Positions 1,782 through 62,837 of a stretch of DNA of 64,000 bases are shown in pieces. Every line of letters begins with the position of its first letter. The stretch's first letter is position 1. The stretch lies in NCBI GenBank assembly GCA_963735255.1, contig CAVTKC010000003.1, forward strand, positions 12,995-76,994, in the 5' to 3' direction. A program made the position numbers and the translations under genes. The notes under the pieces were generated by a model. That model was not told the DNA's origin, made no database searches, and saw nothing but the letters and a program-made list of their open reading frames with translations. The stretch comes from an uncultured Solirubrobacterales bacterium (GTDB lineage Bacteria > Actinomycetota > Thermoleophilia > Solirubrobacterales > 70-9).

Positions 1782-1838
1782 CCGCCGATCCTCTGTGGGC
1801 CGGGCGCATGCGTGGCGCGCACAGTGCCAATTGTTTGA

Positions 1839-1985
1839 GGAGGGACCCGGATGTCCCCCGTGTGAATTGAGTCGCGCACCCTCACGGGTGCTGCTCCGGG
1901 AGATGGTGCGCGCCTATGGCGCGCAGAAGACAGATTGCATTTCGCCGCTGCGCGACATTCTCACGGGGGACATCCGGGTCCCTCC
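1839..1985 (+). repeat. Structured repeat, core family A, copy A1 (forward orientation)
   Basis: Perfect 24-bp arms GGAGGGACCCGGATGTCCCCCGTG (1839-1862) and CACGGGGGACATCCGGGTCCCTCC (1962-1985). They enclose a 99-nt core: TGAATTGAGTCGCGCACCCTCACGGGTGCTGCTCC...GTGCGCGCCTATGGCGCGCAG...GATTGCATTTCGCCGCTGCGCGACATTC. Confidence 0.85.
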
Positions 1986-2153
1986 ACCAACACTCGACAC
2001 CGGGACTTCACGGGTCGGTCGCCATTGAAGCTTCGGAGCTCCCAGCAAGCGACGCGCGGGGAGCTGATTCGCTCGAGGACGCCGCTGGGTTCGAGCGACT
2101 CCCGAGCCCCCGGTCGCGCTCGAGCAGCTTCAAAATCTGAGCGGCGTTCCGTT

Positions 2154-2303
2154 GGGAGGGTGATGGCGCTCCCCCGCAGGAATGTCGCGAAGCGGCGGAA
2201 ATGCAATCCGATTCCTGCCCGCCATAGGCGGGCAGCATCCCCCGGAGCAGCACCCGAAGGGTGCGCGACTCAATTCCAGCGGGGGAGTGTCACCACCCCT
2301 CCC
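2154..2303 (-). repeat. Structured repeat, core family A, copy A2 (reverse orientation; convergent with A1)
   Basis: The reverse complement reads GGAATTGAGTCGCGCACCCTTCGGGTGCTGCTCC..CTGCCCGCCTATGGCGGGCAG..GGATTGCATTTCCGCCGCTTCGCGACATTCC. Arms 2154-2177 and 2279-2303 are imperfect (1 bulge, 3 non-Watson-Crick positions). It lies 18 nt downstream of the frameshift-corrected stop of the ManC-like gene, in sense orientation. Confidence 0.85.
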
Positions 2304-2320
2304 TCGCCAAGCCCTCTCAG

Positions 2321-23626: not shown

Positions 23627-23757
23627 CGCCAACAACCCTAGACGGCTGCAAACCAAGCAGGTCGGGGGACGCAGGGAGGGAGACAAGGGGAGCGCACTCC
23701 GGTGCGTGACCCGCGGTCGACCGACCGAGGACCCGAGATGCGCCGGTTTGCAGCCGT

Positions 23758-24771
23758 CTAAGCGACGATCTCGATGTGCTGCTGCTTTGCCGCGTCCTCG
23801 GGCGTCTCGCGCGCCAGGACCGCGTTCAGCGAGGCGATCGCCACCGCCAACTGCTCTTCGTCGGGCTCGCGGGTGGTCAGGTTCTGCAGCATCAGCCCCG
23901 GCCACATCACCGCCCGCACCCAGCGTTTGCTGCGGTTTTTGCCCGCCCACTTGATCACCTCATAGGAGAGGCCGGCGATCAGCGGGATGCCGAGGATCCG
24001 CGAGAGCACCAGCCAGTACCAGGCGGGCAGCCCGATCGGGGCGAAGACGAAGATCGCCAGCACCATCACGATCAACAGGAAGCTGGTCCCGCAGCGCGGG
24101 TGCAGGCGCGAGTAGAGCTTGGCCCGCGAGGGGATCAGCTCGTCTTCGGCCTCGTAGCAGGAGATCGTCTTGTGCTCGGCCCCGTGGTACTCGAAGACCC
24201 GCCGCAGGTCCGGCATTTTGCTGATCGCGAGGATGTAGCCGATGAAGATCGCGGTGCGCAGGATCCCCTCGACCAGCCAGAAGAGGAAGGGCGAGCCGAG
24301 CTGGTCCTTGATCAGGCTGGTCAAGCCGACCGGGACGACGAAGAAGAGGCCGACCGAGAGGGCCAGGGAGAGGGCGATCGTCAAGCCCCAGATCCAGCCG
24401 CCGATCTCTTCCTTCTCGCCCTCGTCGTCGTCCTCCATCTGGGCGTTGGCGGAGATCGCCAATGCCTTGAAGCCGATCTTCATCGACTCCCCCAGGGCGA
24501 CGACGCCACGGAGGATCGGCAGCCGCCAGAGCCGGTGGCGCTGGGCCCAGGGGACCAGCGTGTCGGACTCGATCTCGATCGCGCCCTCGGGAGTGCGCAC
24601 GGCAACGGCCCAGACCGCGACGCCCCGCATCATCACGCCCTCCAGCACCGCCTGGCCACCGACCGGCGCGTCGCGCTTGGCGACCAGCGCCCCGTCGGGC
24701 ATGCGAACAGGGTCTCCCCCGTTACCGGAGGAGACAGGGGGTGCTTGCGCCGAGCCCACTGGCGGGCTCAC
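23758..24771 (-). CDS. DUF1385 family membrane protein
   Basis: VGGQAVLEGVMMRG...YHGAEHKTISCYE...HPRCGTSF. The rpmE-DUF1385-prfA arrangement is typical. Confidence 0.85.
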   Translation of the reverse strand: MSPPVGSAQAPPVSSGNGGDPVRMPDGALVAKRDAPVGGQAVLEGVMMRGVAVWAVAVRTPEGAIEIESDTLVPWAQRHRLWRLPILRGVVALGESMKIGFKALAISANAQMEDDDEGEKEEIGGWIWGLTIALSLALSVGLFFVVPVGLTSLIKDQLGSPFLFWLVEGILRTAIFIGYILAISKMPDLRRVFEYHGAEHKTISCYEAEDELIPSRAKLYSRLHPRCGTSFLLIVMVLAIFVFAPIGLPAWYWLVLSRILGIPLIAGLSYEVIKWAGKNRSKRWVRAVMWPGLMLQNLTTREPDEEQLAVAIASLNAVLARETPEDAAKQQHIEIVA

Positions 24772-24774
24772 GGG

Positions 24775-43831: not shown

Positions 43832-43897
43832 CATGGTTTTATCAAGCAACTGTGCTCTGCGGAAGCCTATATCAGTCAGTTGCTTGATGCAACCATG
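43832..43897. promoter_or_regulatory. Long inverted repeat CATGGTTttATCAAGCAACTG - 24 nt - CAGTTGCTTGATgcAACCATG upstream of and overlapping the 5' end of hxlR
   Basis: Read directly: 19 of 21 positions are complementary, with a perfect 12-bp inner part. Lies in the lower-GC divergent region between the thioesterase and HxlR. The right arm contains the alternative start ATG 43895. Confidence 0.55.
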
Positions 43898-46832: not shown

Positions 46833-46895
46833 GCGCCGTGGGGGGAGGCACCTGCGAGCGAGGTCTACGTTCTCGGTACCTCCCCCCACGGCGCT
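46833..46895. terminator. Long GC-rich hairpin (20-bp stem with 1 mismatch, 23-nt loop) after the ALDH stop: an 'empty' version of the repeat stems
   Basis: GCGCCGTGGGGGGAGGCACC (46833-46852) pairs with GGTACCTCCCCCCACGGCGC (46876-46895). Starts 5 nt after the stop. No U-tract. Confidence 0.5.
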
Positions 46896-48074: not shown

Positions 48075-48230
48075 GGGAGCGGGACGGGGACCTTCTCCCC
48101 CGTTGAATTGAGTCGCGCACCCTTCGGGCGCGGCTCCGGATGTTGGTGCGCGCCTATGGCGCGCAGATATCGGATTGCATTTCCGCCGCTTCGCGACATT
48201 CACGGGGGAGGAGGTCCCCGTCCCGCTCCC
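48075..48230 (+). repeat. Structured repeat, core family A, copy A3 (forward; sense to the ACAD gene, starts 5 nt after its stop)
   Basis: Arms GGGAGCGGGACGGGGACCTTCTCCCCCGT (48075-48103) and ACGGGGGAGGAGGTCCCCGTCCCGCTCCC (48202-48230) form 29 bp with a single T:G position. Core: TGAATTGAGTCGCGCACCCTTCGGGCGCGGCTCC..GTGCGCGCCTATGGCGCGCAG..GGATTGCATTTCCGCCGCTTCGCGACATTC. Confidence 0.88.
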
Positions 48231-48366
48231 CAACGCAGAGCCCGGGAACGGCCGACCAGCCCCGCATCGAGTGTCGAGCAGTGGCTTAGCTCCAGCGCTA
48301 GCTTCCCCAAGGAGGGGCAGCAACGATTCACCACGAGTCACGGGTGCGGTTGCCCTGCGGCTGCCG

Positions 48367-48519
48367 GGGCGGAGTCGGGTGCGTGGCTGGGGGAATGTCG
48401 CCGCAGGCGGCGGAAATGCAATCCGGTATCTGCGCCGCGGCAGCGGCGCACCGACATCCGAGCTAAGCCCCGAAGGGGCGTGCTCGCCAATTCCCCCAGC
48501 CACGCACCCGACTCCGCCC
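48367..48519 (-). repeat. Structured repeat, core subfamily B, copy B1 (reverse; sense to and abutting the histidine kinase stop codon)
   Basis: Perfect 27-bp arms GGGCGGAGTCGGGTGCGTGGCTGGGGG (48367-48393) and CCCCCAGCCACGCACCCGACTCCGCCC (48493-48519). Reverse complement of the core: GAATTGGCGAGCACGCCCCTTCGGGGCTTAGCTCGG..TGCGCCGCTGCCGCGGCGCA..GGATTGCATTTCCGCCGCCTGCGGCGACATTC. Confidence 0.88.
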
Positions 48520-54623: not shown

Positions 54624-54662
54624 CCGCTGGGGGCCACTGGCCAGAGGGGCGGACCGATCGAG

Positions 54663-54698
54663 TTGCGCCTTTGGGTTCTGGCGCAACCCAAAGGCGCA
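54663..54698 (+). terminator. Hairpin after the ferritin-like gene, with two mutually exclusive pairings
   Basis: TGCGCCTTTGGGTT (54664-54677) pairs with AACCCAAAGGCGCA (54685-54698), 14 bp. Alternatively GTTGCGCC (54663-54670) pairs with GGCGCAAC (54680-54687). No U-tract. Confidence 0.4.
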
Positions 54699-54786
54699 GT
54701 TCACCTGAGCGCGACCGGCGAATGATCAACCTGGCGCACCCTCATAGAGACGATCCGTGCCCTCGGGTCCAGCGGAGGCGGCCAAT

Positions 54787-54932
54787 GAGGGGTCCGGTCG
54801 TCCTCCATTCGAATGTCGCGCAGCGGCGATATGCAATCTGTCTCCTGCGCCGCGGCAGCGGCGCACCAACACCCGAGCTAAGCGGCGCAGCCGCGTGCTC
54901 GCCAATTCGAATGGAGGACGACCGGACCCCTC
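54787..54932 (-). repeat. Structured repeat, core subfamily B, copy B2 (solo, reverse orientation)
   Basis: Perfect 24-bp arms GAGGGGTCCGGTCGTCCTCCATTC (54787-54810) and GAATGGAGGACGACCGGACCCCTC (54909-54932). Reverse complement of the core: GAATTGGCGAGCACGCGGCTGCGCCGCTTAGCTCGG..TGCGCCGCTGCCGCGGCGCA..AGATTGCATATCGCCGCTGCGCGACATTC. Confidence 0.88.
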
Positions 54933-55113
54933 CCCCACCAGCCTCAACTCAAGCAACCCCACCGAGGCGCATCGCTGCAATTCCTCTTGCGCGCCCTCTC
55001 GTCACCGAGAGTTTTTGTCTGTAGACGCATAGATTCCGCCCCACGTGCTTCGGCGGGTGGCCCGCGACGGAGCTTTTCCTGTCTCGAATCAGTCGAATTC
55101 GGCTCGGAGGAGC

Positions 55114-58828: not shown

Positions 58829-59749
58829 ATGCCAGCCTCCCCGACCGCCACGCCGGAGCACATCAAGGACGTCAACACCCGCTACCACGACGCCGCTGCC
58901 GACGAATACGACGCCAAGTGGGGCATCGACTTCGGCGACACCGGCCAGGAGCAGGTGCGGCTGAAGCTGATCAAGGCGCTCGGCGGCCAACGCGGCCGCT
59001 CTTTCGGCGACGCCCTGGAGATCGGCTCCGGCACCGGCTACTTCTCGCTCAACTTGGTTCAGCTCGGCGTGATCGAGCGGCTGACCGCGACCGACATCTC
59101 GCCGGGGATGCTGAAGCGGCTCGCCGGCACCGCCGAGGAGCTCGGAATCGCCGGCGTCACCACCGTCGCCACCGAGGCCGAGACGCTCCCCTTCGCGGAC
59201 GAGAGCTTCGACCTGGTGCTGGGCCACGCCGTCCTCCACCACATCCCCGACCTCGACCGCGCCTTCGCCGAATTCCGCCGCGTCCTCCGCCCCGGCGGCA
59301 TGATCGCCTTCGCCGGCGAGCCCTCGCGTTACGGCGACCGCCTGGCGGCGCTGCCGAAGCGAGTGGGGATGCTCGCCGCCCCCGCCTGGCGGCGCCTGAC
59401 CGGGGCCCGCGAGCGCGCCGTCGCCGAGGCCGACCTCTCCAACGGCCACTCGCTGGAGGGCGAGGTCGACGTCCACGCCTTCGCCCCCGCCGACCTGCGC
59501 CGCCTGTTGCGCGACGGCGGCTTCGAGCACCGCCACGTCGGCGGCGAGGAGCTGCTCTCCAACGCCTGGGGCTGGGGCCTGCGCACGGTCGAGTCGACCG
59601 CCGAGCCCGACTCGGTCTCCTGGGGTTGGCGCAACTTCGCCTTCCGCAGCTACATCGCCCTGCAGAAGGTCGACACCAAGGTGCTCGAGCCCTACCTCCC
59701 GGCCGAGCTCTTCTACAACCTGCTGGTCTCCGCAAGAAAACCGGCCTAG
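58829..59749 (+). CDS. Class I SAM-dependent methyltransferase (Methyltransf_11-like), divergent from the MT-GH57-GT4 operon
   Basis: ALEIGSGTGYFSLNL (motif I)...FDLVLGHAVLHHIPD...LRPGGMIAFAGEP. Confidence 0.85.
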   Translation: MPASPTATPEHIKDVNTRYHDAAADEYDAKWGIDFGDTGQEQVRLKLIKALGGQRGRSFGDALEIGSGTGYFSLNLVQLGVIERLTATDISPGMLKRLAGTAEELGIAGVTTVATEAETLPFADESFDLVLGHAVLHHIPDLDRAFAEFRRVLRPGGMIAFAGEPSRYGDRLAALPKRVGMLAAPAWRRLTGARERAVAEADLSNGHSLEGEVDVHAFAPADLRRLLRDGGFEHRHVGGEELLSNAWGWGLRTVESTAEPDSVSWGWRNFAFRSYIALQKVDTKVLEPYLPAELFYNLLVSARKPA

Positions 59750-59792
59750 TTGATTCGCGGTGACCGTCGCAGGTTCTCTGGCCTCGGAGGGC

Positions 59793-59920
59793 TGAGGGAG
59801 GGTGCGGGTGTCCCTCTCCCTTGCTGGGATTTTCGCCAGAACAACTGAGTCCGTCCGAGGTGGAGCTCTCGGGCGAAAATCAGGACGCCGCGCGTCCGAG
59901 GGACACCCGCACCCTCCTCA
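59793..59920 (+). repeat. Structured repeat, core family C, copy C1 (forward)
   Basis: Arms AGGGTGCGGGTGTCCCTC (59799-59816) and GAGGGACACCCGCACCCT (59898-59915) are perfect; TGAGG(G) and CCTCA extend them with 1 bulge. The core contains the inner 10-bp stem GATTTTCGCC...GGCGAAAATC. Confidence 0.85.
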
Positions 59921-60033
59921 CGCTTCGAGATCGCTCCAGCTCACGAGGAGCCGGAGGATCGGCGCTCTCAGCTCAAAGGAGCCGCGGCTTGGGCGCTCTT
60001 AGCTGAACTGCCGTACTTCGCGACGCTTGCGTT

Positions 60034-60158
60034 GGGAGGGGTCGGGCACCTCTCGTACGAGCGGCGTCCGATTTTCGCCCGAGAGGCCTCCCTCGGACGG
60101 CCGTTAATAGTTCCTGGCGAAAATCCCAGCGAAGGTAGAGAGGTGCCCGACCCCTCCC
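60034..60158 (-). repeat. Structured repeat, core family C, copy C2 (reverse; convergent with C1)
   Basis: Perfect 21-bp arms GGGAGGGGTCGGGCACCTCTC (60034-60054) and GAGAGGTGCCCGACCCCTCCC (60138-60158). The reverse complement of the core aligns along its full length with C1 (GCTGGGATTTTCGCCAG..CCGTCCGAGG..CTCTCGGGCGAAAATC.GGACGCCGC). Confidence 0.85.
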
Positions 60159-60188
60159 CCACCCAGCCTTCGAAGTACGTCGTCCTGA

Positions 60189-61313
60189 TCAACCCCGCCC
60201 GAACCGCGCGCGGAACAGCTTCACCTTGGAGTCGATCCCCTTCAGCCGCCGCTCGCCGATGTACGTGTAGTCGAAGTCCTCCTCGGCGGCGCCTTTGACC
60301 GACTCGTCGACGACGACGCTGCCGGGCCGGGCGACGCCGGTGATGCGGCTGGCGAGGTTGACCGGGCGGCCGTAGTAGTCGCCCGACTGCGGCAGTACCG
60401 GGCCACAGGCGAGGCCGGCTCGCAGCCAGGGGAACTCGTCGCCTTCGGCCTCGGCGGCGTCGATCAGGTCCAGGCTCGCCGCCAGCATCGGCTCGGCTTC
60501 GGGCGAGACGAACATCACCGCGTCGCCGATCGTCTTCACCAGCCGCACCGGCGGCTCGGCGACGGCGCTGGCCATCTCCTCCAGCCGGCCGGCGACCATC
60601 CCCAGCTCCTCCGGTGGGATCTCCTCGCCCAGCCGCGTGAACTCGACCAGGTCGGCAAAGCAGACGCTGAGGGTGGCGGTGCCGCCGATCTCCCCCGAGG
60701 CGAGGTCGGCGGTGGCGATCACGTCACGGCGGATCTGCTCGAGCATGTTCGCCTGCAGCGCGTGGACGATGGTCGGCCCGACCAGGGGCATCATGAACTC
60801 GGCCGCCGCGGCGAAGCGCAATGCGAGGTCGCGCTCGCTGTCGCCCGGCTGAGCCACGGTGCGGATGACCAGCTCGCGGTTGGCCTCGGCGATGCGGGCG
60901 GTGCCCATCCCGATCGTGCGCGCCACCTGCAGCATCCCGTCCTCGGGCAGGCCGGCATCGCGGAAGGCCTTCATCCGGCGCGCCGCCTCGAGGTCCGCCT
61001 CGGTCCCGCGCGGTTCGTCGGGGTCGGTGTAGGGGACACCGAGGGCTGCACTGAAGCGTCGTAGCTGGTCGAGGTCGATGCCGACGATCTCGGCGATTTC
61101 CCGCGCCGTGTAGCGCCGCCCCTCCCCGGCCAGCGCCCGCTCGACCGGCAGCAGCGCCAGACGCCCCGCCTGCACCGCCGCCCGCAGCTCCTCCAGCGGC
61201 ACACCCTCCGCGGTCAGCTCCCGCAGCAGGGTCGCGCGGGCCGCACGGGCATCGGGGTCGAGGTCGTCGAGCAGCCCCTCCGCCGCGAAGTCGATCTCAG
61301 GGGTGGCGCCCAC
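60189..61313 (-). CDS. Class III adenylate/guanylate cyclase with an N-terminal regulatory domain
   Basis: LSVCFADLVEFTRLGEE...VKTIGDAVMFVS...GDYYGRPVNLASRI. GTG at 61313 was chosen to avoid overlap with GGT. The N-terminal domain is reminiscent of the Rv1264-type regulatory domain (from memory only). Confidence 0.85.
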   Translation of the reverse strand: MGATPEIDFAAEGLLDDLDPDARAARATLLRELTAEGVPLEELRAAVQAGRLALLPVERALAGEGRRYTAREIAEIVGIDLDQLRRFSAALGVPYTDPDEPRGTEADLEAARRMKAFRDAGLPEDGMLQVARTIGMGTARIAEANRELVIRTVAQPGDSERDLALRFAAAAEFMMPLVGPTIVHALQANMLEQIRRDVIATADLASGEIGGTATLSVCFADLVEFTRLGEEIPPEELGMVAGRLEEMASAVAEPPVRLVKTIGDAVMFVSPEAEPMLAASLDLIDAAEAEGDEFPWLRAGLACGPVLPQSGDYYGRPVNLASRITGVARPGSVVVDESVKGAAEEDFDYTYIGERRLKGIDSKVKLFRARFGRG

Positions 61314-61332
61314 GAGCGCATTCTTGCGCTCC

Positions 61333-62837
61333 TCAGGCGTAGGCGACGGCCCCGCCGCGGCGTGGGTCGCCACCACCGCTGAGCGCGCCGCTGGCCGGGT
61401 CACGCGCCACCGCCTGCACACCGCCGAAGAAGAGGTTGACTTGGGGCCGGCGGGCGACCGCGAAGCCGCGCGCCTCGAGCCGGGCCAGTGCCGCCTCGTC
61501 GATCCCCGGCTCCGCCTGGACGACGCCGTCCTCGAAGTGCAGGCGCGGCGCCTCGATCGCCGCGTCGACCGGCAGCCCCTGCTCGACCGCGCGCACGACC
61601 GTCTGCAGGATCGCCGAGCGGATCCGGTTGGAGCCGGCGCTGCCGACCCCGAGCACGATCTCGCCCTCGCGCAGGACCACCGTCGGCGCCATCATCGAGG
61701 GCACGCGGCGGCCGGGCTCGATGCTGTGGAAGCCGAGCGGGTTGAGGTCCTCCTCGCCGAGCATGTTGTTGAGGATCACCCCGGTCCCCGGCACGAGAAC
61801 GCCGGAGCCGGAGCCGTTGGAGCAGGTGACCGCCGCGCACATCCCGTCGGCGTCGAGAACCGAGATGTGCGTGGTCGAGCCGAGCAGGTCTCCGGCGGCG
61901 AGGTCGAGACCGGCCGGATCGAGGAAGCTCGCCTCCATCCCCTCCTCGTAAAGAGCTTCGGCGAACTCGATGCCGCGGCGGCGGTTGGCGGCATCCATCG
62001 CCGCGACCAGTTGCTCCGGCCCACTCTCGGGGCCGAGCCGCTCCAGCAGGCCAAGGCAGAAGGCGATCAGGATCCCGCCCGAGGAGGGCGGCGGGTTGGT
62101 CAGGACCTCGCAGCCGCGGAAGGGGGCGCGGATCGGCTTGCGCTCGAGCGGCTCGTAGGCGGCGAAGTCGCCGCGGCCGAGGCTCCCCCCGTTGGCGCTG
62201 ACGAACTCGCTCAGGGCGGCGGCGACCTCACCGTGCTGGAACGGCTCCGCCCCCTCGGCGCCGAACCTTTCCAGCGCCTCCGCCAGTTCCGGGAAGCGGA
62301 ACGTGTCCCCCTCCCGCAGCGGCCTACCGCCCGGCGCGTAGAGCCGCGCGTCCCGGCCAGCCGATCGTGGATCGGGGCCAGGATCTCGAGGATGTAGGCC
62401 TGCTCGGCGTTGACCGGGGCACCCTCGCGGGCGAGGCCCACCGCCGGCCCGATCAGGTCCGCGAGCGGCACCGAGCCGAAGCGCTCCAGGGCCCGCTCCA
62501 GACCCACCGCCGTCCCCGGCACCCCGCACGAGGCCGGGCCGACGTAGAACGTCTGCACGGTCTCGGCGTCGAACTGAACCGGCACCGGCGCCAGCTCGGT
62601 TCGCCGCTCGATCCCGTCGAGGCCCGGGGCGGCGACGAAGAAGTCGATCAGCGCCGTCTCCTCGCCGCGGTGGACGATCATGTAGCCGCCGGCGCCGAAG
62701 CCGGTCAGCGGGCTCTCGACGGCGAAGGAGGCGAGCACGGCTCCGACCGCGGCGTCGACCGCGTTGCCGCCCGCGCGCAGCACGCCGGCGCCGGCCTCGG
62801 CGGTGAGCGGATGGCCGGCGGCGACAACCCCGTTCAT
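61333..62837 (-). pseudogene. ggt: Gamma-glutamyltransferase family protein (no signal peptide), frameshifted
   Basis: N-terminus in one frame (MNGVVAAGHPLTAEAGAGVLRAGGNAVDAAVG...AYILEILAPIHDRLAG, then junk). C-terminus in another frame (DARLYAPGGRPLREGDTFRFPELAEALERFG...LLGSTTHISVLDADG [catalytic Thr]...SGGGDPRRGG). The junction is at the minus-strand GGG run (plus CCC 62352-62354). One extra G restores ..LAGDARLY.. Confidence 0.8.

Follow-up and report, generated by a model that had tools for sequence, protein, structure and literature searches.

Two hairpins, C1 on the left and C2 on the right, lie between convergent methyltransferase and adenylate cyclase genes and together make up a single composite palindromic repeat of about 430 bp (approximately positions 59780-60188 of the 64,000-nucleotide stretch from an uncultured Solirubrobacterales bacterium, here called the window). 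This repeat probably belongs with the non-autonomous mobile palindromes of the REP, BIME, REPIN and MITE type, and it is a member of a large, so far undescribed superfamily of non-coding repeats that occupy intergenic sites in Solirubrobacterales (class Thermoleophilia). Because the doublet formed by the two hairpins is present in some close relatives, absent from others and found again in unrelated gene contexts, its behaviour is that of a DNA element that is mobile or duplicative and non-autonomous.

Nearly all interspersed palindromic repeats whose biology has been worked out (REP, BIME, REPIN-RAYT and Correia) come from Proteobacteria and Neisseria. With the doublets, a soil order that is little studied and for the most part uncultured seems to have an abundant counterpart of its own. 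Their two-level build (arms into hairpins, hairpins into doublets), interchangeable families and clean signal of concerted evolution make them a useful natural system for asking how genomic palindromes stay perfect and what enzyme moves them. The doublets also create or remove intergenic space between convergent genes and break metagenome-assembled genomes (MAGs), and covariation screens would mistake the hairpins for structured RNAs unless a wobble test is used.

Structure of the C doublet and its family

The earlier note on this DNA had described two hairpins with a shared core between convergent genes, and the stems, cores, inner helix and flanking genes were all found at the positions it gave (Table 1). 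The cores of C1 and C2 share 83% identity (z = 24 for their local alignment, against shuffles), and the spacer measured between the perfect stems is 116 nt (113 nt by the limits of the earlier note). By our own base-composition estimate, 64 kb of DNA at 70% G+C should contain about 1e-4 perfect 20-bp inverted repeats lying within 150 nt. The fold z-scores of C1 and C2 ranged from -6.8 to -7.8, and 0 of 200 shuffles folded equally well. Two of the window proteins have no exact database record, and the orthologous loci were reached via homologs.

Table 1. Positions of the C doublet, its parts, its flanking genes and the other hairpins of the window
Feature	Position	Strand	Details
A/A doublet	1837..2304		A(+) 1837-1987, A(-) 2154-2304; between tandem comF-like and NTP-transferase genes
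Small-loop hairpin, family G	46833..46894		16-20-bp stem, ~28-nt loop, 5' arm GCGCCGTGGGGGGAGG
A/B doublet	48075..48519		A(+) 48075-48230, A/B(-) 48367-48519; different core family, same superfamily
Single A-type hairpin	54787..54932	-	Perfect 28-bp stem; inside ~390 nt missing from the ferritin-HTH gap of L120 and L122
Class I SAM-dependent methyltransferase gene	58829..59749	+	Pfam Methyltransf_11, E = 4e-26; orthologs 86-93% identity
Possible 13-nt target duplication, left copy	59737..59749	+	AAAACCGGCCTAG; methyltransferase 3' end including stop codon
Left terminal segment of C doublet	59780..59796	+	ggCCTCGGagggctga; homologous to ACCTCGGGCCGyt before hairpin 1 in L120, L121, L112, L098
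Hairpin C1	59797..59917	+	Perfect 20-bp stem P1 59797-59816 / 59898-59917, GGAGGGTGCGGGTGTCCCTC, around 81-nt core
C1 P2	G59823, C59824, G59826, G59827 pair with C59888-C59891	+	
C1 P3	59828-59837 / 59872-59881	+	Inner helix GATTTTCGCC/GGCGAAAATC
C1 apical domain	59838-59871	+	Contains GTCCGTCCGAGG
C1 3' bulge	59882-59887	+	AGGACG
C1-C2 spacer	59918..60033		31-nt tandem repeat 59946-59976 / 59977-60007, 77% identical
Hairpin C2	60034..60158	core on -	Perfect 21-bp P1 60034-60054 / 60138-60158, GGGAGGGGTCGGGCACCTCTC, around 83-nt core
C2 P3	60070-60079 / 60116-60125	-	Inner helix GATTTTCGCC/GGCGAAAATC
Right terminal segment of C doublet	60159..60188	-	ccacccagccttcgaagtacgtcgtcctga; homologous to ...CTCGAAGCAAG..CGTCCTG after hairpin 2 in L120, L121, L112
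Adenylate cyclase gene with Ad_Cy_reg domain	60189..61421	-	Start codon uncertain; orthologs 374-387 aa
Possible target duplication, right copy	60190..60203	+	CAACCCCGCCCGAA; now encodes adenylate cyclase C-terminus

Using a covariance model (R1), we collected 62 copies of family C from about 30 Solirubrobacterales assemblies, the comparison sequences other than the window being MAG or metagenome assemblies, in which repeats are prone to assembly error. The model scored C1 at 117.9 bits and C2 at 106.4 bits, both copies belonging to its seed alignment. A scan of the collection with the P3 arms alone found about 50 Solirubrobacterales copies, which have GCTGG, AGGACGCCGC and a G-rich P1 in common, all features outside the search pattern; the R1 set includes 13 copies that do not match the P3-arm pattern. 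Up to seven copies occur in a single MAG (JACDGU01; L007, L026, L030 with two, L074, L082 and L091).

The fold of family C is a rod: P1, a 4-bp P2, a 10-bp, A/T-containing P3 whose 3' bulge, (A)GGACG-CCGC, is conserved, and a tip that varies. Pairing was found in 97.9% of cells, compared with 85% after shuffling and 45-55% after sliding, and two-sided changes were found in 263 cells (57 expected), as in the P3 pairs GCTATTCGC/GCGAATAGC and CGTTTTCGC/GCGAAAACG. In P1, changes on both sides occurred in 17 of the 19 pairs; 13 of the 19 are GC- or CG-dominated and conserved, and about six positions vary with compensation. P2, P3 and the bulge are conserved across the order, and invariant unpaired nucleotides stand beside the covarying helices. 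The mismatch spectrum of family C is DNA-like: among 2042 cells there were 13 G·U/U·G, 19 A·C/C·A and 28 other mismatches, so that despite strong covariation G·U was not in excess of A·C on either strand, which indicates that G·U is not tolerated.

The view that the C core has no relation to the core of the A/B doublet was borne out, since all local alignments between them gave z of 2 or less against shuffles in both orientations. Family C is thus a true second core family in the same architecture as A/B, and R1 matched the A hairpins weakly, via their stems (E = 5e-4 to 0.7). The common G-rich hairpin framework proposed for differing cores was also recovered: a stem framework (GGGAGGG / GAGGGG ... 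GGGTGYCCC) is common to hairpins with unrelated loops, those of families C, D and J and partly A, and one stem consensus, GGAGGGTCGGGTGCCCCT, closes the unrelated loops of C, D and J. The stems are not private to each copy as had been thought, being variants of the family consensus, and the stem of C1 recurs unchanged in the ortholog L120. The 5' arms contain 46-61% G; that the G-rich arm always lies on the left of the plus strand is trivial, because a perfect palindrome reads the same 5' arm on both strands.

The sample contains about nine loop families, and family A has UUCG-like loops. The window holds seven large hairpins and one small-loop hairpin in 64 kb, and close relatives hold none to four per 21 kb, with none in L122. 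The A/B doublet fills the gap between the stop codons of an acyl-CoA dehydrogenase gene and a histidine kinase gene. The family G hairpin is kept at the orthologous site in L121 (827-885), and its relatives serve as partners in C doublets (L079 7687 and L101 3369).

Pairing in a convergent doublet, described in the earlier note, proved to be a general rule. Of 60 C copies, 44 had a strong partner hairpin within 330 nt on their 3' side, compared with 2 of 61 on their 5' side. The partner may come from any family, and the combinations found were C-C, A-A, A-C, C-A, D-C, D-D and C with small-loop hairpins.

Filled and empty sites and concerted evolution

What close relatives have or lack was shown to be the doublet as a whole, neither a single hairpin nor a core. 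The gap between the methyltransferase and cyclase genes is filled in the window, L120 and L121, while the two genes overlap without a doublet by 37 nt in L123, 37 nt in L124 and 4 nt in L122 (87-93% protein identity), so that with the window included the C doublet is present in three and absent in three of the six close relatives. The site of the A/B doublet is empty in L120 (TAG CCC TCA) and filled with different stems in L121, and L120 and L122 both lack the insert in the ferritin/HTH gap. Orthologous sites with and without an insert were thus found at three loci. The way in which they are distributed over the relatives requires either precise loss or repeated gains, which counts against a mobile element.

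The doublet units are 370-450 bp long, contain no conserved open reading frame and are dispersed over three unrelated gene contexts. C doublets with the same terminal sequences lie beside a Ham1-like gene (L112) and beside sugar-transferase/AsnB genes (L098), and in the alignment homology between doublets from different gene contexts begins at the left terminal segment (59780..59796). The outer ends, ACCTCGG... and ...GAAGCAAG, are common to five C-C doublets whose stems vary. In one MAG, two A-C doublets are about 80% identical, and their homology stops at the hairpin feet. Since copies within a genome are 70-85% identical rather than near-identical, no recent burst is visible, which also counts against a mobile element.

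Whether insertion duplicated the target at the C doublet is ambiguous. In the empty site of L123, one stretch of 12-13 nt (CAAACCCGCCTGA) aligns with both flanks of the window insert, and a 13-nt direct repeat flanks the C doublet in the window, but none was found in L120 or at the acyl-CoA dehydrogenase/histidine kinase site. The sequences examined contained no parent insertion sequence for the C doublets, and about 0.5 Mb of genome pieces (8-21 kb each) showed no single-copy RAYT (Y1 HUH) gene flanked by repeats. The only transposase seen at the loci examined, an IS481 nested in the L121 spacer, is unrelated to the hairpins: it inserted independently and has inverted repeats and a CCTAGC duplication of its own.

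We then compared cores and stems. Core identity was 83-85% within a doublet and 72-79% between orthologs, whereas stem identity for hairpin 1 was 95-100% between orthologs and 67% between doublet partners. The appearance of a shared core with a private stem arises because the cores are homogenised within the doublet and each stem is inherited separately, and it is better explained by concerted evolution of the inverted cores in one doublet. Between the window and L120, identity was 72% for the cores, 51-59% for the poorly conserved spacer and 81% for third codon positions. A doublet at a fixed locus was thus shown to diverge faster than synonymous sites while the family consensus persists across the order.

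Each half of a doublet is a 120-150-bp hairpin with inverted G-rich, REP-like arms (GGGAGGG-NNN-GGGTGYCCC) around a family-specific structured spacer. The active form is probably the hairpin folded in single-stranded DNA, which an enzyme would recognise in trans; by analogy, a RAYT/HUH-like protein is the obvious candidate. After insertion, the close inverted repeats would be kept complementary by templated repair or gene conversion. Conversion of arm with arm inside a hairpin and of core with core across the doublet could produce the perfect copy-specific stems and the near-identical cores. As a by-product, transcripts entering from either side would meet a very stable RNA hairpin, which probably insulates or stabilises the 3' ends of convergent genes.

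A further proposal is possible and is made tentatively. In Actinomycetota the doublets may form a new class of mobile but non-autonomous elements: the folded single-stranded DNA core and the G-rich arms would be read by a probably domesticated enzyme, and two tail-to-tail hairpins of any family would form the transposable unit. Alternatively or in addition, the cores may represent a functional RNA fold that is new. The conserved unpaired nucleotides, the UUCG-like loops of family A and the order-wide conservation of P2 and P3 would fit a functional RNA equally well. Literature searches for repeats in Conexibacter or Solirubrobacter and for MITEs of actinobacteria found no description of such repeats. 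At the gathering score the whole 64-kb window gave no Rfam match, and local E-value scans gave chance-level matches to long hairpins of the miRNA or VA type alone (E > 0.001).

RNA function, loop cargo and chance

It was considered that the hairpins may be cis-acting RNA elements in neighbouring mRNAs, serving as bidirectional factor-assisted terminators, 3'-end stabilisers or RNase III sites in the manner of REP stabilisers and mycobacterial TRITs, and kept by selection at each locus. We regard this as rather unlikely. C1 and C2 form very stable folds on both strands, a symmetric doublet offers a "sense" hairpin to transcription from either side, and P2, P3 and the bulge are kept across the order, but G·U pairs are not favoured over A·C (13 against 19), which counts against an RNA role. 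Many copies adjoin stop codons, and the small-loop hairpin at 46833-46894 is kept at its orthologous site in L121. On the other hand, stop-codon distances vary, some copies lie 25-35 nt from a start codon, and close relatives carry overlapping genes in place of the element. Orthologous cores also diverge faster than third codon positions. The terminator scan found one weak terminator-like motif (0.4 expected), in which TGATTTTCG follows a GC hairpin on the strand antisense to each C core, but P1 has no U-tract after it. The TRITs nevertheless set a precedent, being a palindromic element confined to one genus and conserved in sequence that lies at gene ends (PMC3152330).

Gene context bears on the same question. 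The location between convergent genes, stressed in the earlier note, holds for the C site of the window and fails as a rule for the family, whose sites lie between tandem genes in 20 cases, convergent genes in 14 and divergent genes in 9; sites between divergent genes (9 of 43) count against the cis-acting RNA reading. True singlets (about five sense to three antisense) follow no clear orientation rule, which also counts against the cis-acting reading. An apparent bias of single copies toward the sense of the upstream gene (about 14 to 4) was set aside, because most of these "singles" have a partner from another family or sit at a contig end.

In the modular model of the earlier note, a common hairpin chassis existed beforehand and interchangeable structured cores were inserted into its loop as cargo. 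The shared framework and the free combination of families in doublets stand, but cargo insertion and private stems do not, and we find the model unlikely as a whole. In its favour, the consensus GGAGGGTCGGGTGCCCCT is shared by the unrelated loops of C, D and J, and similar G-rich stems with short loops of 22-30 nt exist. The hairpin beside comF (the NTP-transferase/comF site) is A-type in the window and C-type in L017, which carries an A(+)/C(-) doublet at the site orthologous to the A/A doublet (1837..2304), and C1 shares an identical stem with hairpin 1 of L120 while the cores are 72% identical. However, the empty orthologous sites lack the whole doublet, stems included, and among the hairpins examined no identical stem was found both with and without a core. 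The differences between the window and L120 cores are spread along alignable sequence and track the partner hairpin, as gene conversion predicts, and heterotypic doublets stay unhomogenised. A separate idea, that the window A hairpin beside comF keeps a C-type ancestral stem, was dropped, since the likeness (GGAGGGAC..GGATGTCCCC) lies within the general arm consensus.

That the cores encode trans-acting small RNAs, or form a new class of self-cleaving ribozyme, with the variable P1 simply closing the fold, is very unlikely. Invariant unpaired nucleotides beside covarying helices would suit such genes, and multicopy dispersal is typical of some ribozyme classes. But the promoter scan found no sigma-70-like site, there is no room for a promoter where a hairpin abuts a stop codon, and the cores show no wobble tolerance, have no Rfam relative and occur in both orientations relative to the flanking genes. 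A chance palindrome, or the purely local duplication that the two C copies in the 64-kb window might by themselves suggest, can be dismissed with near certainty given 62 copies in about 30 assemblies, up to seven of them in one MAG, and fold z-scores of about -7. A mobile palindromic repeat is the reading that we retain.

Comparison with known palindromic elements

Integron attC sites lie downstream of genes, act as single-stranded DNA folded into hairpins of 60-140 nt, and conserve structure above sequence. The Solirubrobacterales hairpins probably act in a similar folded form and likewise conserve structure more than sequence. Unlike attC sites, they show no R/L boxes (GTTRRRY) or extrahelical-base pattern in the alignments and no integrase context, they form convergent pairs instead of same-orientation arrays, and their centre rather than their ends is conserved.

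The "Tuberculosis Rho-independent terminator" (TRIT) is a short single hairpin that overlaps stop codons and is found in more than 100 copies near gene termini (PMC3152330). Like TRIT, the hairpins are actinobacterial, lineage-restricted, sequence-conserved, palindromic and bidirectional, and lack a canonical U-tract (PMC3152330). TRITs have neither a large conserved loop nor the doublet organisation of the Solirubrobacterales hairpins, and no presence/absence turnover has been reported for them. The Solirubrobacterales hairpins also differ from an intrinsic terminator in having no T-run after P1 and from TRIT in having no fixed stop-codon position.

In Correia repeat-enclosed elements the inverted repeats are constant between copies, and the transcribed repeats fold into RNase III-type hairpins (PMC2649163). 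As in Correia elements and MITEs, inverted repeats of 20-30 bp surround a conserved core of about 50-100 bp, and the elements are dispersed and polymorphic between strains (PMC2649163); like MITEs, the units are small (less than about 500 bp) and non-coding. They differ from Correia elements in that about six stem positions vary with compensation, no consistent TA duplication is seen, the hairpins form convergent pairs and no parent insertion sequence was found.

The BIMEs of E. coli are mosaic clusters of inverted REP/PU units with specific linkers that bind IHF or gyrase. The doublets resemble them in combining palindromic subtypes in alternating orientation with characteristic linker lengths, in intergenic positions and often at 3' ends, but the Solirubrobacterales units are about four times longer, have branched or rod-like interiors and number just two per cluster.

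A REP unit is a 20-40-nt imperfect palindrome after a conserved GTAG-type motif, and the REPINs of the REP-RAYT system in Pseudomonas and Enterobacteria are extragenic, multicopy and non-coding, with inverted arms and a spacer that fold in single-stranded DNA or RNA (PMC3116915, PMC8266576). Like REPINs, the Solirubrobacterales hairpins have inverted, conserved G-rich arms around a 70-100-nt spacer, compensatory changes that keep the hairpin, insertion/excision polymorphism and long persistence in the lineage. In both systems doublets are over-represented relative to singlets, although here whole hairpins pair, one level above the REPIN doublet. Unlike REPINs (50-110 nt), the hairpins are 120-150 nt long, they have no GTAG-type or equivalent invariant 5' tetranucleotide, and the arms are not themselves palindromes. 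The host belongs to Actinomycetota, not Proteobacteria, and no RAYT was seen in the 0.5 Mb. The spacer is itself conserved, structured and family-defining, and there is a second pairing level, in which two whole hairpins stand in obligate convergent orientation. Overall, the Solirubrobacterales doublets most resemble the proteobacterial REP/BIME/REPIN repeats, but their build is unusual.

Structure and pairing of the C1 and C2 hairpins

The hairpins C1 and C2 are located in a window with a G+C content of about 70%, whose proteins have homologs in Solirubrobacterales according to source names. Both hairpins contain the inner helix GATTTTCGCC/GGCGAAAATC (P3) inside the closing stem (P1). The cores inside P1 are 83% identical (alignment z = 24 versus shuffles), and the fold z is about -7 for each hairpin, with 0 of 200 shuffles as good. 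The coordinates, inverted-repeat closure and common core described in the earlier note were all as placed, and its proposal that the core is unrelated to that of the A/B hairpins agrees with alignment against shuffles, which found no similarity (z ≤ 2) in either orientation.

Coordinates of the hairpins and neighboring features (window positions unless another locus, L, is named)
Feature	Position	Strand	Description
C1	59797-59816 / 59898-59917	core +	Perfect 20-bp inverted repeat enclosing 81 nt
C2	60034-60054 / 60138-60158	core -	Perfect 21-bp inverted repeat enclosing 83 nt
Class I methyltransferase gene	stop 59749	+	Flanks C1/C2
Adenylate cyclase gene, with regulatory domain	stop 60189	-	Flanks C1/C2
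Tandem repeat in C spacer	59946-60007		31-nt units AGGAGCCGGAGGATCGGCGCTCTCAGCTCAA / AGGAGCCGCGGCTTGGGCGCTCTTAGCTGAA, 77% identical; small GAGC..GCTC hairpin per unit
A/A doublet	1837-2304		Neighboring genes tandem, not convergent
Family E hairpin	23639-23760		16-bp perfect stem TAGACGGCTGCAAACC, 90-nt loop
DUF1385 gene	23758-24774	-	Stop codon in 3' arm of family E hairpin
Family E hairpin, L042	2234-2358	reversed	Homologous loop, different stem (CCTGAGGGCGTGGGACC)
Inverted repeat	43832-43897		A/T-rich 21-nt arms CATGGTTTTATCAAGCAACTG ... CAGTTGCTTGATGCAACCATG, 24 nt apart
Small-loop hairpin	46833-46894		16-20-bp stem, ~28-nt loop (tgcg.gcg...ctc.gt.ctc); between acyl-CoA dehydrogenase and aldehyde dehydrogenase genes
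Orthologous site, L121	827-885		Small-loop hairpin kept, stem changed
Terminator-like hairpin	54664-54698		14 bp; separate from nearby A-type hairpin
Single A-type hairpin	54787-54932 (within 54625-55016)		28-bp arms; core inverted versus spacer-like flank cagcctcaactca (cf. cagctcaactca in L017)
D-D doublet, L091	1304-1741		Homotypic; longer spacer, ~175 nt
IS481-family element, L121	11130-12205	transposase -	Ends TGTAG...CTACA; CCTAGC duplication
Gene overlap, L123 and L124	10885-10921		37 nt each, no doublet
Gene overlap, L122	10918-10921		4 nt, no doublet

The consensus fold of family C is a rod composed of P1 (at least 19 bp, in places with 3-5 additional subfamily-specific pairs, TAC/GTA, CCCAT/ATGGG or CGCGC/GCGCG), P2 (4 bp, GC-GG/CCGC, with a GC-to-CG switch in 8 copies), P3 (10 bp), a 3'-side bulge, (A)GGACG, and a variable apical domain (GCCGTCCGAGG in the window's subtype). 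Among 62 copies, standard pairs filled 97.9% of cells, versus 85% when shuffled and 45-55% when the partners were slid; 21 of the 33 pairs had changes on both sides, and 263 cells were changed on both sides versus 57 expected. P3 also covaried in copies found by the covariance model rather than by pattern (GCTATTCGC/GCGAATAGC, CGTTTTCGC/GCGAAAACG). The A/B family has the same architecture, with compensatory change in 26 of 37 pairs (15 copies).

The mismatch spectrum in family C (13 G·U/U·G, 19 A·C/C·A and 28 other) was not RNA-like. Since G·U was found 13 times and A·C 19 times, wobble is tolerated no more than the opposite-strand wobble mismatch. The pairing is preserved in the DNA itself or through a process that does not respond to RNA folding energies.

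Distribution of family C and its doublets

The initial scan, using a pattern of the two P3 arms only and one genome per species, returned at least 119 loci. About 50 loci among the matches listed, all from Solirubrobacterales, Conexibacteraceae or Thermoleophilia assemblies, shared features outside the pattern: GCTGG 5' of P3, AGGACGCCGC 3' of P3 and a long G-rich closing stem. The covariance model R1, built on 51 copies with C1 and C2 in the seed alignment, matched 62 copies in about 0.48 Mb. Of these, 13 deviate from the exact P3-arm pattern (75-125 bits), including both hairpins of L120 and both of L121, syntenic loci of close relatives that were absent from the model. Other genomes, nearly all MAGs, were compared as 8-21-kb pieces; several MAGs had 4-7 copies each on separate contigs. 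With 62 copies inside and outside the window, in many assemblies, the merely local duplication considered in the earlier note is not what was found. The window scans gave no Rfam match for family C, and the literature search found no published description of its hairpins.

The 10-nt P3 arms GATTTTCGCC/GGCGAAAATC also form the closing stems of other, unrelated short hairpins, found repeatedly within Promicromonospora (40-nt units; L045, L065, L071, L084, L105), within Tardiphaga and relatives (L004, L050, L062, L081; Tardiphaga loops GAGAGGTGC...CACCTTTC) and within one Flavobacteriaceae MAG (L023, L037, L097). They are probably small, independent families of repeats or terminators.

The unit here is the doublet. 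A strong partner hairpin (stem of at least 12 bp, at most 1 mismatch, within 330 nt of the core) was present on the 3' side in 44 of the 60 C copies with enough flank, and on the 5' side in only 2 of 61. Partners belonged to family C in 12 doublets, to A in 8, to D in 2 and to other large-loop families in 2, or were small-loop hairpins; their orientation was always convergent, and all three window doublets obeyed this rule. The convergent hairpins of the earlier note are thus general, but its convergent genes are not: 43 scorable sites, defined at most loci by a rough GC3-based ORF filter, comprised 20 tandem, 14 convergent and 9 divergent contexts. The small-loop hairpin at 46833-46894 belongs to the family that partners C in L079 and L101, and the GCCGTCCGAG motif found in the apical domain of C1 and C2 also occurs in the D loops of L091.

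Turnover and concerted evolution

We fetched five syntenic loci from relatives with 87-93% methyltransferase identity. The C-C doublet fills the methyltransferase/cyclase gap in the window, L120 and L121. In the doublet-free relatives the two convergent genes overlap without a gap and the C-terminal tail of the cyclase differs by lineage; therefore, repeat gain or loss rewrites the last 5-15 cyclase residues. The IS481 element of L121 is nested in the doublet spacer, leaving the hairpins about 1.1 kb apart, and the 31-nt tandem repeat of the window's C spacer is not conserved in the spacers of L120 and L121.

Other sites also varied. The A/B doublet site between the acyl-CoA dehydrogenase and histidine kinase genes reads TAG-CCC-TCA in L120, and in L121 it is occupied by an A/A doublet whose stems are quite different; the NTP-transferase/comF site holds A/A in the window versus A/C in its ortholog L017; and the window's ferritin/HTH gap exceeds those of L120 and L122 by about 390 nt. 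The C-C doublets beside Ham1-like (L112) and sugar-transferase/AsnB (L098) genes are homologous along their full length, including the termini ACCTCGG... and ...GAAGCAAG..CGTCCTG, and two A-C doublets in one MAG are about 80% identical, with homology ending at the hairpin feet. The window's C doublet is bordered by a 13-nt direct repeat, a possible target-site duplication, which has a single counterpart at the empty sites; no such flanking repeat was found in L120 or at the acyl-CoA dehydrogenase/histidine kinase site.

At the methyltransferase/cyclase locus, core identity within the doublet was 83% in the window, 84% in L120 and 85% in L121, and that between orthologous hairpins was 72-79%. 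Hairpin 2 stems were 77% identical between the window and L120, and partner stems within the window's doublet 67%. P3 is GATTTTCGCC in both window hairpins and GCTATTCGCC in all four hairpins of L120 and L121. The inverted cores thus appear to exchange sequence, while each stem "sees" only its own opposite arm. Concerted evolution explains the shared core and private stem. For the whole doublet as ssDNA, the predicted preferred fold is one long foldback pairing C1 with C2 (-133.6 kcal/mol, z = -11.7), which would be the geometry required for core exchange.

Nature of the repeat

The best-supported reading is that the doublets are a non-autonomous mobile palindromic repeat acting as folded ssDNA. 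The main rival, a cis-acting RNA (terminator, stabilizer or RNase III site), is plausible as a secondary consequence and has precedents in TRITs (PMC3152330) and Correia elements (PMC2649163). However, orthologous divergence exceeds that of third codon positions (72% identity for cores and 51-59% for spacers versus 81%), and the family C consensus is nonetheless retained across the order. This combination marks a repeat family that copying or conversion keeps renewing, rather than a functional RNA tied to one locus.

The stems bear on the earlier note's modular system. Most P1 positions are conserved in family C, with about 6 variable and compensated, and the hairpin 1 stem is 95-100% identical between the window and L120 (C1 stem, 21 of 21). 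The 5' arms of the different families share a high G content (46-61%), and most of them begin with GGGAGGG or GAGGGG. The arm GGAGGGTCGGGTGCCCCT is identical around three unrelated loops, C (L036), D (L074, L082) and J (L029), so the stems are not private as claimed; the A-type stem GAGGGGTCCGGTCGTCCTCC at 54787 recurs in L011, L017, L068 and L104. The proposal that cores enter a pre-existing hairpin framework fits the common arms and how freely the families combine, but no case of such entry was found.

Family E is a further family with a conserved loop and different stems, and its window hairpin had no Rfam match. The loop of the A-type hairpin at 54787-54932 looks as if flipped between its arms. 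The inverted repeat at 43832-43897, conspicuous at 70% G+C, looks like an operator site.

The small sample holds about nine loop families (A, C, D, E, F, G, H, I and J; loops of 22-120 nt), and each hairpin can be seen as a family-specific spacer between two inverted REP-like arms. The doublets best fit a mobile repeat of the REP/BIME/REPIN/MITE kind, which a putative enzyme may mobilize by analogy with RAYT and REP (PMC3116915, PMC8266576).
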